From Lacinutrix sp. (GTDB lineage Bacteria; Bacteroidota; Bacteroidia; Flavobacteriales; Flavobacteriaceae): 64,000 nucleotides of DNA. A program made the position numbers and the translations under genes. The notes below the pieces were generated by a model that made no database searches, had not been told where the DNA came from, and saw only the letters and a program-made list of their open reading frames with translations. This document shows, in pieces, positions 39,542 to 43,299 of this stretch. The first letter of the stretch is position 1. Every line of letters begins with the position of its first letter. The stretch is from contig NZ_JASJHV010000140.1 in the NCBI RefSeq assembly GCF_037625555.1, forward strand, positions 982-64,981, given 5' to 3'.

Positions 39542-40849
39542 TTAGTCGAAATCTTTATTCTCTCCTAAATCAGCTTTTTGAACATTTAACGCTTTGTTAT
39601 CTGGGCCAACTACAAAAGCAACAAGCTCTAATTCACTTGTATCTTGAACTGTTCCAGGAACAGTTAAAGTATAGTTAGCTGTGTGTGTGCTCCCTGTATC
39701 AGAATCTGCCGCTGGTATTGCATCACCAAAAACATCTGTAAAAACAGTACGTGCTACATGATCATGTACAAAACCTACAATTGGATTACCTGTTTGGTAC
39801 CAAGGGCTTGAAGAATCTCCATTATAATAGTTTACTTGGTTGTAAACTAAACCATTCTCTAATAAATAAACAACAATTCTATTATCTGAACTTGCTTTTA
39901 AATCATAGTGTACGTTTACCTCAGCAGTAATTGTAGAGCCAGAAAGAGAAGAAGTAATTGATAATCCCATATTTTGTCTCGTATTTATGTGTGAAGACAA
40001 TTGGTTAAAGTTTTCATTCCACGTTGTTGTTCTATTAATTTTAGCAGTTGGAAATCCATTAACACCAAAAGCACTTTCCATTTGGTTAGCATATGGAAAT
40101 AACATTTGGTTATCATCATGTATTGCTACTGGTATAATATTACCGTTTTGGTTTACTGCATCTTCTAAAGAAGAAGCAACTCTTGGGCAATAACCACACC
40201 ATGTACCTGTATAATCTTCAATCATAACTTTAGTTGTATGTGTAGATGCTACTGCATTTAAAACAACTGTATTAGAAACTAAATCAGAACCATCAGGTAA
40301 TACATAAGTTGCATAAACATTATATGTACCAGCACTTGCAAAAGTAGCAGGATTCGTTAATGTTCCAGACTCTGCAGTATAAGTAACCAAACCAGTTTGG
40401 TTAACTCCAAAGTTATCTGTTACTACAAAAGCAGCACTTCCTGAATCAAACCAAAAATCATTTACATTTGTTGTAAGAGTTAATGCAGTTGGAGTACTTG
40501 CTTCTTGAACATTTATAGTTACAGAATTAGTTAGACTACCATTAGTAGCAGTAACAGTAAAATCTGCAGCAGAAGTAAATGTGTAAGGATTTGCAATTAC
40601 TGCACCTCCAAGTGTTAGCACTGAACTTGAAGTGACATCTGTACCTAAATTGTTTACAACAGTAAAAGTTACAGCTTCTCCTGTAAGAGCACTAGATGGG
40701 TTACCTGTTACAGTAATTGAAGTTGCCGCAGCTCCTCCTCCACCTCCACCATTTCCATCTCCACTTCCATCATCAGAACCGCTACATGCAAATGCAAAAA
40801 CCACGAAGGTTAATACTACTAATTCTTTTAAAATACTTTTTACTCTCAT
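39542..40849 (-). CDS. Omp28-related lipoprotein with thioredoxin-like CXXC
   Basis: Lipobox AFAC followed by SGSDDG; Ig-like repeats; IEDYTGTWCGYCPR, GFPT, HDHVAR. Confidence 0.88.
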   Translation of the reverse strand: MRVKSILKELVVLTFVVFAFACSGSDDGSGDGNGGGGGGAAATSITVTGNPSSALTGEAVTFTVVNNLGTDVTSSSVLTLGGAVIANPYTFTSAADFTVTATNGSLTNSVTINVQEASTPTALTLTTNVNDFWFDSGSAAFVVTDNFGVNQTGLVTYTAESGTLTNPATFASAGTYNVYATYVLPDGSDLVSNTVVLNAVASTHTTKVMIEDYTGTWCGYCPRVASSLEDAVNQNGNIIPVAIHDDNQMLFPYANQMESAFGVNGFPTAKINRTTTWNENFNQLSSHINTRQNMGLSITSSLSGSTITAEVNVHYDLKASSDNRIVVYLLENGLVYNQVNYYNGDSSSPWYQTGNPIVGFVHDHVARTVFTDVFGDAIPAADSDTGSTHTANYTLTVPGTVQDTSELELVAFVVGPDNKALNVQKADLGENKDFD

Positions 40850-40991
40850 TTTGGTATGTGTTTTGTTAATAAATACTAATTATCCATTATCTCAGACAAT
40901 TTTTGTTTCAATGTTCTAATCTATAACATATTTATCAAAAAATTCAAAAATAAATCACTAATTTTATAAAAAATATTTAATAATATATCAA

Positions 40992-41471
40992 ATGAAACAA
41001 TTCCTTCTTTTATTATTAACTGCTATAACTATTAATGTTACAGCTCAAGAAACTTTACCTTCTATAGAAATTAAAACTTTAGATGGAAACACAACTAGCT
41101 TACAAAAAATAAGTAAAGACAATGATCTTATTGTTGTCTCATTATGGGCTACTTGGTGTGTACCTTGCAAGAACGAATTAGATGCAATAAATGATGTTTA
41201 TACAGATTGGCAGGAAGAAACAAATGTAAAACTATATGCTGTTTCTGTAGATGACTCTAGAACTGTAAATCGCGTAAAGCCTTTAGTAAATGGAAAATCA
41301 TGGGAATTTGACATCTTACTAGACACTAATAATGACCTCAAAAGAGAATTAGGAGCAGCAACTGTTCCACTTACATTAATAATAAAAAACGGAAAAATTG
41401 TGTATAGACATTCTGGCTATACACCTGGAGCTGAAGACGAATTATTCGAAGAAATCAAAAAACATTTTTAA
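40992..41471 (+). CDS. TlpA family periplasmic disulfide reductase
   Basis: Signal peptide, WATWCVPC, cis-Pro motif VPLT. Confidence 0.92.
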   Translation: MKQFLLLLLTAITINVTAQETLPSIEIKTLDGNTTSLQKISKDNDLIVVSLWATWCVPCKNELDAINDVYTDWQEETNVKLYAVSVDDSRTVNRVKPLVNGKSWEFDILLDTNNDLKRELGAATVPLTLIIKNGKIVYRHSGYTPGAEDELFEEIKKHF

Positions 41472-41502
41472 ACTACAAAAACTAATCAACCAACCAACCT
41501 AA

Positions 41503-43299
41503 ATGAAAAAAATCGCAATTTTCATTGTGCTAATACTTCCTATTGTAAGTTTTGCACAAGAAACAGATACAGAAGACAATACGATATTTTCACAATTTTT
41601 AGATAACCTTTCTGGTAATTTAGAAACTAATGCGCAGTGGTACACTAATGACTCTAAATTAGGTGAGTTTGTAGATCCCATTGCTGAATTTGATTTAAGA
41701 GATGAACACGTAAGAGTTAATAGTTATTTACGCTTAGATTATAATTTTTTAAAGAACTTTACAGTAGGCTTACAAGCTGAAAGTTACGAACCTTTTCCAC
41801 TTATTAACTATTATCCAGAATATAACGATACACAAATAGCAACCTATTATGCTAATTTTAGAAACGAGCAATTAGACGTTACAGCAGGTTACTTTTATGA
41901 ACAATTTGGTAGCGGTTTATTACTACGTGCCTTTGAAGAAAGACAACTAGGTCTTAATACAGCTTTAAGAGGTGGACGTGTTAAATATGCTCCTACAGAC
42001 TATTTTGATGTTACAGCATTATATGGGCAACAACGTATTGCTTTTAATGTATCCGATAGTGATATTTTTGGTTTTGATGCTAATTTTGATGTTTCAAAAG
42101 TATTAGAAATCAAAGGTGTAAATCGTTTAAATTTAGGCTTTAGCTACGTAGGCAAACAAGAAGATTTTACGCCTCCAGTAGATGAGTTTGATCCAGATTA
42201 CGAGTTTGACACTTCTGCTTTTCCTGAAATGATAAATTCTTACTCAGCTAGATTAGATTTAGATTTAGGGAATGTTTATTTTAAAACAGAATATGCTTTA
42301 AAAGGAGAAGATGTTTCTTTTATCCCTCCTTCTTTACCAGGAACTGGCGTTCTTGAAGGAAAATATTTTGATGGAAACGCCCTTATTTTTACAGCAGGAT
42401 ATAGTAAAAAAGGATTAGGAGTTATTTCTACATTTAGACGTATAGAAAACATGGTTTCTACTGCTGAAAGAAATGCAGCAGATATTTCTTCTGTTGAGTT
42501 TCAATTTAACATGCAAAACTTTAATTACCTTCCTACTTTAACTAAACAGCAAGACTATTCTTTAGCAAACATATATATCTATAATGTACAGCCTGGATTA
42601 TTTTTACAAAATTTTGGTGGACAAGCCGGAGAAATAGGTAACAACCTTGATGTTTTTTCCAACTTTAAAAAAGGCTCTACTTTAGGTGGTAAATATGGAA
42701 CAAAATTTACAGCCAACTTTGCATATTGGGCACTCTTAGATGCCGAGTTTGATCAGGCAGAATCTACTTACAATGCCGAGTTTTTAAAGTTTGGTAAGCG
42801 CTTAAACAGAGACTTTAACTTTGAAGTAAGAAAGAAAATATCTAAAAATTGGTCTTCAATTTTCACATATATAAACTCTATTATTGATAAAGGTGTTGCC
42901 TTGGGAGGAAACCTAGGCACAGATGGTGACATAAAATCTCAAGTTGCTATTTTTGATGTTACACACAAGCTAGGTAAAGGAAAATCTTTTAGAGTAGAAG
43001 CACAACATTTATGGACAAAACAGGACAGAAAAAACTGGGTAGGTGGAACTTTAGAATATATTGCAAATAGAAGACTAGGCTTTTACGTTTCAGATATTTA
43101 TGATTATGGTAATGATAATGAGTTTAGCACAGAAACAAAGGCACATTATTATAATATTGGTGGCAGCTATACTAAAGGTGCTACTCGTGTTGCTTTAAAT
43201 TACGGAAGACAACGTGGTGGCTTACTATGTGTTGGTGGTGTTTGTAGAATTGTACCAGAAAACACAGGTCTTTCTTTAAATCTAGCTACTTCATTTTAA
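41503..43299 (+). CDS. DUF6029 outer-membrane beta-barrel protein
   Basis: Signal peptide, GYFYEQFGSGL, YGRQRGGLLCVGGVCR, terminal Phe. Confidence 0.82.
   Translation: MKKIAIFIVLILPIVSFAQETDTEDNTIFSQFLDNLSGNLETNAQWYTNDSKLGEFVDPIAEFDLRDEHVRVNSYLRLDYNFLKNFTVGLQAESYEPFPLINYYPEYNDTQIATYYANFRNEQLDVTAGYFYEQFGSGLLLRAFEERQLGLNTALRGGRVKYAPTDYFDVTALYGQQRIAFNVSDSDIFGFDANFDVSKVLEIKGVNRLNLGFSYVGKQEDFTPPVDEFDPDYEFDTSAFPEMINSYSARLDLDLGNVYFKTEYALKGEDVSFIPPSLPGTGVLEGKYFDGNALIFTAGYSKKGLGVISTFRRIENMVSTAERNAADISSVEFQFNMQNFNYLPTLTKQQDYSLANIYIYNVQPGLFLQNFGGQAGEIGNNLDVFSNFKKGSTLGGKYGTKFTANFAYWALLDAEFDQAESTYNAEFLKFGKRLNRDFNFEVRKKISKNWSSIFTYINSIIDKGVALGGNLGTDGDIKSQVAIFDVTHKLGKGKSFRVEAQHLWTKQDRKNWVGGTLEYIANRRLGFYVSDIYDYGNDNEFSTETKAHYYNIGGSYTKGATRVALNYGRQRGGLLCVGGVCRIVPENTGLSLNLATSF

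Follow-up and report, generated by a model that had tools for sequence, protein, structure and literature searches.

Can thiol reducing power be carried across the outer membrane to the surface of a Gram-negative bacterium? We know of no route by which it passes beyond the periplasm in these organisms. The question is raised by three adjacent genes in a stretch of 64,000 nucleotides from Lacinutrix sp. (Flavobacteriaceae, Bacteroidota; assembly GCF_037625555.1, contig NZ_JASJHV010000140.1, positions 982 to 64,981), hereafter called the window. The genes form a divergent unit, and each encodes a protein with one cysteine pair. On the minus strand, an open reading frame (ORF) at 39542-40849 encodes a 435-residue lipoprotein of the Omp28/HBP35 type, with a WCGYC active-site motif at 40187-40201. 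On the plus strand, tlpA (40992-41471, 159 residues) encodes a TlpA/ResA-type thiol-disulfide oxidoreductase with a WCVPC active site (41154-41168), and is followed after a gap of 31 bases by a gene for a 598-residue barrel protein of the family DUF6029 (41503-43299), whose cysteine pair is encoded at 43219-43254. A first-pass annotation, made from the sequence alone, had proposed that these proteins form a thiol-redox relay across the outer membrane; the three genes, their coordinates and the three cysteine motifs that it described agree exactly with the ORFs and motif positions found here. We consider it likely, with a probability of roughly 0.55, that the trio constitutes a single thiol-disulfide module of the cell envelope, one that links the periplasm to the cell surface.

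Across the Bacteroidota, genes of the three families lie side by side and are strictly inherited together. In a Pfam search of an even sample of 301 genomes from this phylum, 79 proved to have DUF6029, and 48 DUF6029 loci, from many families, were taken with 8-kb flanks. A tlpA gene of the module type lies within about 1 kb upstream of the barrel gene at 42 of these 48 loci, and an Omp28-like gene with a CxxC motif lies near it at about 43. The genes usually run tlpA, barrel and omp28 on a single strand. Clustering of all neighbours at 47 loci revealed no other conserved neighbour family. A profile built from 35 module TlpAs and searched in the 301 genomes gave bimodal scores: the 79 barrel genomes had one match each, at 152-222 bits, and the best match in the other 222 genomes reached 122 bits. 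As many as 44 of the 79 barrel-positive genomes had contributed no sequence to this profile, and in the seven genomes where no tlpA adjoins the barrel gene, the orthologue lies at another place. Pfam Omp28 scores above its cut-off in 49 genomes, all of them barrel-positive (0/222 among the barrel-negative). The barrel-positive genomes that lack a Pfam-grade Omp28 belong mostly to one clade, f28, which the Pfam model misses because its Omp28-like gene is too diverged; at all eight loci examined (8/8), that gene lies two genes past the barrel and is preceded by a small redoxin. More than 40 genera show the pattern, and the co-occurrence with tlpA and omp28 on which the first-pass annotation had staked its proposal is found both at the loci and in the genome counts, with 79 barrel genomes and 79 genomes with the module TlpA.

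Several variants of this arrangement were observed. In clade f28 (L071-L078) the barrel is shorter, at about 503 residues, and carries CTSGIC; the small Redoxin and the Omp28-like protein both have CPHC, and genes for FeoB and an iron-dependent repressor/FeoA are found at a distance of a few genes. In another clade, f31 (L035, L038, L041, L042 and L045), the place directly upstream of the barrel is taken by a gene other than tlpA; the module-type tlpA is located elsewhere in each genome. At the one f31 locus scanned (L038), that upstream gene encodes a TPR protein of 209 residues, which matches TPR_Slam faintly; three such genes at position -1 fall together in the clustering. Among 80 named loci, mostly from the Flavobacteriaceae, the commonest order is that of the window, with omp28 pointing away from tlpA and the barrel gene; the nearest of them is from Psychroserpens burtonensis, at 60% identity.

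The barrel matches Pfam DUF6029 (PF19494) over the whole profile (positions 1-538 of 538) with 623.5 bits against a cut-off of 27 (4e-187), and it ends in Phe. Its only cysteines, C576 and C581, form a C-x4-C motif in GLLCVGGVCRIV. Across 41 barrels, which fall to 14% identity, eight columns are invariant; these include C576 and C581, with G573, G579 and G589 around them. The motif is kept in every intact barrel of the 48 loci (48/48), a set seeded with a Pfam model that is blind to cysteines and to neighbours, and the conservation that the first-pass annotation had made a test of its proposal is therefore borne out. The 80 named loci mentioned above, retrieved with a closer alignment subset, also keep the pair (80/80), which is not independent evidence because the Cys motif itself was the seed. 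No solved relative of the barrel was found by sequence. The predicted structure is a confident one (pLDDT 85.8, pTM 0.84) and has 24 long strands; the links between them are by turns short, with 2-5 residues, and long, the short ones being on one side. Among known structures, it matches FimD (Z 16.9) and PapC (Z 15.4) over residues 34-598, and the matches also include MtrB (Z 12.6) and, at rank 31, Wzi (Z 11.1). With strand 1 beginning at precursor residue 35, there is no room for the plug of a TonB-dependent transporter; the Pfam scan finds neither such a plug nor any other domain, DUF6029 being the only match. DUF6029 is thus, as modelled, a 24-stranded outer-membrane barrel. To our knowledge, both termini are periplasmic in all known substrates of the β-barrel assembly machinery (BAM), and therefore the long connections should be extracellular and the Cys hairpin, residues 573-584, should be the last extracellular loop. 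In the model, this hairpin consists of two strands between strands 23 and 24 and appears to sit directly on two membrane-length strands. By topology, then, the C576/C581 pair is predicted to face the outside.

No fused barrel-thioredoxin form was found among proteins of 1048-2990 residues, which is weak evidence. Selenocysteine variants, considered as a proof of catalysis, were rejected: when the model NF045500 was run over the 301 genomes, nothing scored above its cut-off, and no TGA stood in frame at the motif. There are two interrupted barrels, one (L071 8636-8724, G108) with an in-frame TGA and the other (L025, G077) with a split near residue 475; both are possibly pseudogenes or assembly errors. 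The TGA in G108 was also considered as selenocysteine at the Cys pair and rejected; its mid-gene position marks it as either a break or an error of sequencing.

TlpA, the periplasmic partner, matches Pfam AhpC-TSA (8.2e-19) and Redoxin (6.4e-15), and its nearest NCBIfam models are ResA, StoA and TlpA. Its N-terminus, MKQFLLLLLTAITINVTA followed by QE, reads as a cleavable signal peptide that ends in VTA immediately before QE. Four active-site residues, W55, C56, P58 and C59, are invariant in 35 orthologues, and a Glu stands three residues past the second Cys of the WCxPC motif, as Glu80 does in ResA. The scores do not reach the named equivalogs of NCBIfam (ResA, 60 bits against a cut-off of 170; TlpA, 44 bits against 230). 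The match to the solved structure 2m72 has an E value of 1e-39 and 139 bits, as against about 45 bits for ResA or StoA. On these scores, the window TlpA is clearly an orthologue of 2m72, in an orthologous group separate from the named equivalogs. Its motifs assign it to the soluble periplasmic oxidoreductases of the reducing ResA/CcmG/TlpA class. The genome has one DsbD_TM gene, unlinked to the trio.

The lipoprotein is composed, in order, of a signal peptide up to the lipid Cys22, the acidic sequence SGSDDG, a Gly-rich linker, two immunoglobulin (Ig)-like spacers, a thioredoxin domain with WCGYC and an Omp28 β-sandwich. Pfam Omp28 (PF11551) matches residues 255-431 with 105.1 bits against a cut-off of 34.9 (4.9e-30), and a sub-threshold Pfam Thioredoxin match lies just N-terminal of this domain. 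C218 and C221 are invariant in 29 orthologues. The NCBIfam model for the Omp28 family outer membrane lipoprotein gives 61.1 bits, below its cut-off of 150. The structural model is most similar to HBP35 (PDB 5y1a, E 7.6e-13), followed by the Omp28 structure 2r2c, which the orthologue profile matches at 4.3e-33. The motif WCGYCP is identical in HBP35; the 2r2c construct is without the N-terminal part, so that the thioredoxin motif is unreadable there. Both the kinship with HBP35, which the first-pass annotation had pointed out, and the acidic SDD patch that it had noticed behind the lipid Cys are borne out by these data. Taken together, the matches identify the window lipoprotein as a diverged Omp28/HBP35 member with an extra N-terminal spacer of 170 residues. 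Omp28-like lipoproteins mostly carry CG(N/Y/W/F)C, and CPHC in one clade. The active sites of DsbC, DsbA and thioredoxin are CGYC, CPHC and CGPC, respectively. In other words, the CxxC motifs of the lipoproteins resemble isomerase or oxidase sites more closely than the CGPC of thioredoxin.

On which side of the outer membrane would this lipoprotein act? Omp28-like lipoproteins begin, on average, with C-S-(K/S)-D-(E/D)-(D/E), and the window protein has S-D-D at +4 to +6. It also has the Gly-rich linker and the Ig-like spacers that surface lipoproteins typically show. The lipoprotein export signals (LES) defined experimentally are K-(D/E)2, SDDDD and SDDFE (PMC5080379), and the N-termini of the Omp28-like proteins would fit this acidic type of signal. 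HBP35 is anchored at the surface of the cell through a type IX secretion system (T9SS); it reduces insulin, an activity lost in the C48S/C51S mutant (PMC2907840). The Pfam scan found no Por_Secre_tail in the window lipoprotein, which has a lipoprotein-type N-terminus instead; in other genomes, paralogues with an Omp28 domain do carry T9SS tails, and they occur only in genomes that bear the barrel. From these features, a surface location of the lipoprotein is plausible. A T9SS-tailed redoxin of about 485 residues, with WCGPCW, was also seen at position -2 of a barrel gene (L037 5835-7283), with similar ORFs at L031, L043 and L046; its domain make-up marks it as a putative second, secreted class of thioredoxin-fold client outside the Omp28 family.

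How might the three proteins work together? In the mechanism that we favour, the unlinked DsbD-type protein would keep TlpA reduced, and the barrel would be the dedicated link from this periplasmic reductase to the lipoprotein and, elsewhere, to T9SS-secreted paralogues as well. The lipoprotein would be flipped to the cell surface, where its DsbC/PDI-like CGYC would reduce or isomerise extracellular disulfides. Two routes through the barrel can be imagined. In one, a relay, thiol-disulfide exchange would pass via the Cys hairpin of the barrel itself, as via the Ig-fold N-terminal domain of DsbD. In the other, the barrel would be a sheath, and the thioredoxin folds of TlpA and the lipoprotein would meet inside its usher-sized lumen, as MtrB sheathes MtrA against MtrC. 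Either route would need TlpA inside the lumen because the Cys pair is on the extracellular side. The stronger claim, that the C-x4-C hairpin is itself redox-active and is the core of a conduit from DsbD through TlpA and the barrel to Omp28/HBP35-type thioredoxins and on to extracellular substrates, is one that we advance only tentatively, as a possibility somewhat against the odds.

Several points weigh against a module of this kind. With the Cys pair outside, TlpA must enter the lumen, and the long conserved loops 132-154 and 316-373 may fill it. Cross-strand disulfides in the extracellular loops of large barrels can be structural, as in FhuA and FepA, and the pair in DUF6029 may be another of this sort. 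The surface location of the lipoprotein is a prediction, and its lipobox (FAFAC) is atypical. Neither DsbD nor CcdA was found as a conserved neighbour at the 47 loci. Related genomes are not independent of one another, so that the phyletic counts overstate the statistics, and we place no weight on the Fisher p-value. Finally, every step of the mechanism is inferred.

The main rival is a role in assembly or anchoring. Here the barrel would be a docking platform or translocon for the lipoprotein, comparable to LptD holding LptE; the C-x4-C would be a structural staple, and TlpA would serve only in biogenesis, where it would maintain or correct the cysteines of the two proteins on their way, with no steady electron flow. 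This explanation would accommodate three observations: the Cys pair stands on either side of a tight G-G turn, where cross-strand disulfides are typically placed; barrel and lipoprotein are inherited together; and the lipoprotein gene usually comes directly after the barrel gene. The Omp28-domain paralogues exported by the T9SS need no translocon, and yet they are confined to barrel-bearing genomes, which therefore disfavours a mere lipoprotein translocon; nor would a reductase needed for maturation alone be expected one-to-one with the barrel in 79/79 genomes, unlinked cases included, and staple disulfides are rarely invariant at 14% identity. We regard this role as unlikely, about one chance in a handful. 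A different proposal is that the trio acquires haem or metal: the Omp28/HBP35 domain would capture haemin or a metal, the barrel would import it and the thiol proteins would keep the ligand cysteines reduced. HBP35 does bind haemin via its Omp28-like part (M135-P344), and its mutant grows poorly without haemin (PMC2907840). This haemin binding is independent of the cysteines of HBP35 (PMC2907840), and yet the cysteines are the invariant feature of the trio; the iron genes mentioned above, which would suit such a role, adjoin the module in clade f28 only, the barrel has no TonB plug or haem motif, and none of the three proteins contains CxxCH. Such a role is, in our estimate, improbable.

A little less probable still is an arrangement confined to the periplasm, in which the lipoprotein faces inwards and, together with TlpA, acts on periplasmic substrates or gates the barrel, through which some small compound, a thiol or a disulfide, would pass. 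TlpA is clearly periplasmic, and the exposure of the lipoprotein is only predicted, from an N-terminus with an unusual lipobox. The same N-terminus is acidic and LES-like, it leads into the linker and spacers of a typical surface lipoprotein, and paralogues have T9SS tails; moreover, HBP35 and the Paraprevotella protein 00502 have been shown at the surface. The sole paper that we found naming DUF6029 suggests polysaccharide export and reports an HHpred similarity of plug-less Wzi-like barrels to this family (PMC9603273). The Wzi match of the window barrel might be read in the same sense. It ranks below many unrelated barrels, however, the ushers being the best matches to the 24-stranded model, and no OPX, PCP or glycosyltransferase family occurs among the conserved neighbours of the 47 loci. 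Membership of the Wzi/OPX-linked porin class, an 18-stranded barrel near OPX/PCP genes, is accordingly not supported. An export porin would also leave the thioredoxin-fold partners and the invariant cysteines unexplained, and we give it hardly any credence.

The proposed module can be placed beside systems that are already known. The DsbD/CcdA pathways to TlpA, ResA and CcmG are alike in being cascades of Cys pairs on separate proteins with a WCxPC reductase of the TlpA class. The N-terminal domain of DsbD has an all-β fold with a redox-active C-x5-C between thioredoxin-fold partners (PMC2631958). Such cascades span the inner membrane and have their last member in the periplasm, whereas the trio adds an outer-membrane barrel, without sequence or fold relation to DsbD, and a thioredoxin-fold protein of the surface type. 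HBP35 of P. gingivalis (5y1a) and Omp28 (2r2c) have the same two-part build as the window lipoprotein, a thioredoxin domain with WCGYCP and then the Omp28 β-sandwich; HBP35 reaches the surface via a T9SS C-terminal domain, whereas the window protein is a lipoprotein with Ig-like spacers and no such tail. We know of no proposal for the source of reductant for HBP35. In MtrCAB of Shewanella (6r2q), too, a redox protein of the periplasm is encoded together with a barrel of very large size and a redox lipoprotein at the surface. It moves electrons through haems, whereas transfer in the trio, whose proteins are without CxxCH, would be thiol-disulfide exchange. The FimD and PapC ushers share the 24 strands of the barrel and are its best structural match, but the barrel has no usher plug and no N-terminal or C-terminal usher domains, has no sequence similarity to ushers and has no chaperone or pilin gene nearby. 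The entry 2m72 ("uncharacterized thioredoxin-like protein"), the orthologue of the window TlpA, comes from structural genomics and has no function assigned. In Paraprevotella clara, 00502, annotated as an "Omp28-related outer membrane protein", is T9SS-anchored, has Ig-like domains, recruits host trypsin and triggers its autodegradation (PMC9477747); therefore, "Omp28-related" proteins act on extracellular proteins. By its annotation it is a putative relative of the window lipoprotein, and PMC9477747 does not mention thiol chemistry. No description of the function of the trio, or of a thiol route across the outer membrane, was found in the searchable literature. A connection of PorA with the module through the literature was considered and rejected, since Omp28 and the upstream genes go unmentioned in both PorA papers.

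The remaining features of the locus concern its boundaries. The 142-bp AT-rich region between the omp28-like gene and tlpA (40850-40991) is presumed to be their shared promoter region; no promoter was identified within it. A terminator-like palindromic hairpin at 39493-39526 closes the omp28-like gene, and it could act in both directions because an A-run precedes it and a T-run follows. A second terminator-like palindromic hairpin, 3' of the barrel gene (43323-43362), is common to that gene and a convergent minus-strand gene at 43382-45883, which encodes an 833-residue outer-membrane protein with CarboxypepD_reg and DUF5686 and adjoins the module in the Lacinutrix genome only. The two hairpins have the same stem core, AGGC(C/T)TCCA..TGGA(A/G)GCCT, as had been noticed in the first reading of the sequence. 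The palindrome AGGCTTCCA-N-TGGARGCCT occurs in only three copies in the 2.27-Mb assembly: two flank the trio at a distance of 3.8 kb from each other, and contig C46 has the third. The flanking hairpin was absent from all 164 related loci (0/164) and is therefore a local feature; as the mark of a mobile cassette it was rejected. The pair could be due to chance, to a duplicated terminator or to en-bloc acquisition, of which it would be a trace. Beyond the first hairpin lies a stretch (38430-39257) without a Pfam match, which contains an open frame of 215 codons (38610-39257); its first start codon comes at 38949, and the frames upstream are broken. This is consistent with a gene remnant, in line with the destroyed flanking locus described at first reading. 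Further away, a plus-strand gene at 35892-38381 encodes an 829-residue T9SS cargo (Por_Secre_tail, 3.6e-12) with a weak match to DUF676/PGAP1-like α/β-hydrolases, and hence the genome uses the type IX secretion system.

What would such a module mean for these bacteria? The Bacteroidota show active thioredoxin-fold proteins at their surface, of which HBP35 is one and the Omp28-related protein of Paraprevotella may be another. A reductase and a barrel that are co-inherited with surface proteins of this kind provide a concrete, testable answer to where reducing power at the surface comes from, and the trio probably extends thiol chemistry as far as the cell surface, along a route described in no paper that we found. 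Reading the trio as one thiol-disulfide module would also provide a role for DUF6029 and for 2m72 and 2r2c, structures that are solved but unassigned. The module occurs in marine Flavobacteriaceae, such as the Lacinutrix genome studied here. If the cysteine pair of the barrel is indeed redox-active, DUF6029 would be the first β-barrel thiol-disulfide oxidoreductase, and it would explain how HBP35-like surface proteins stay reduced. Perhaps it would also account for the way in which host proteins rich in disulfides are destabilised by Omp28-related proteins.

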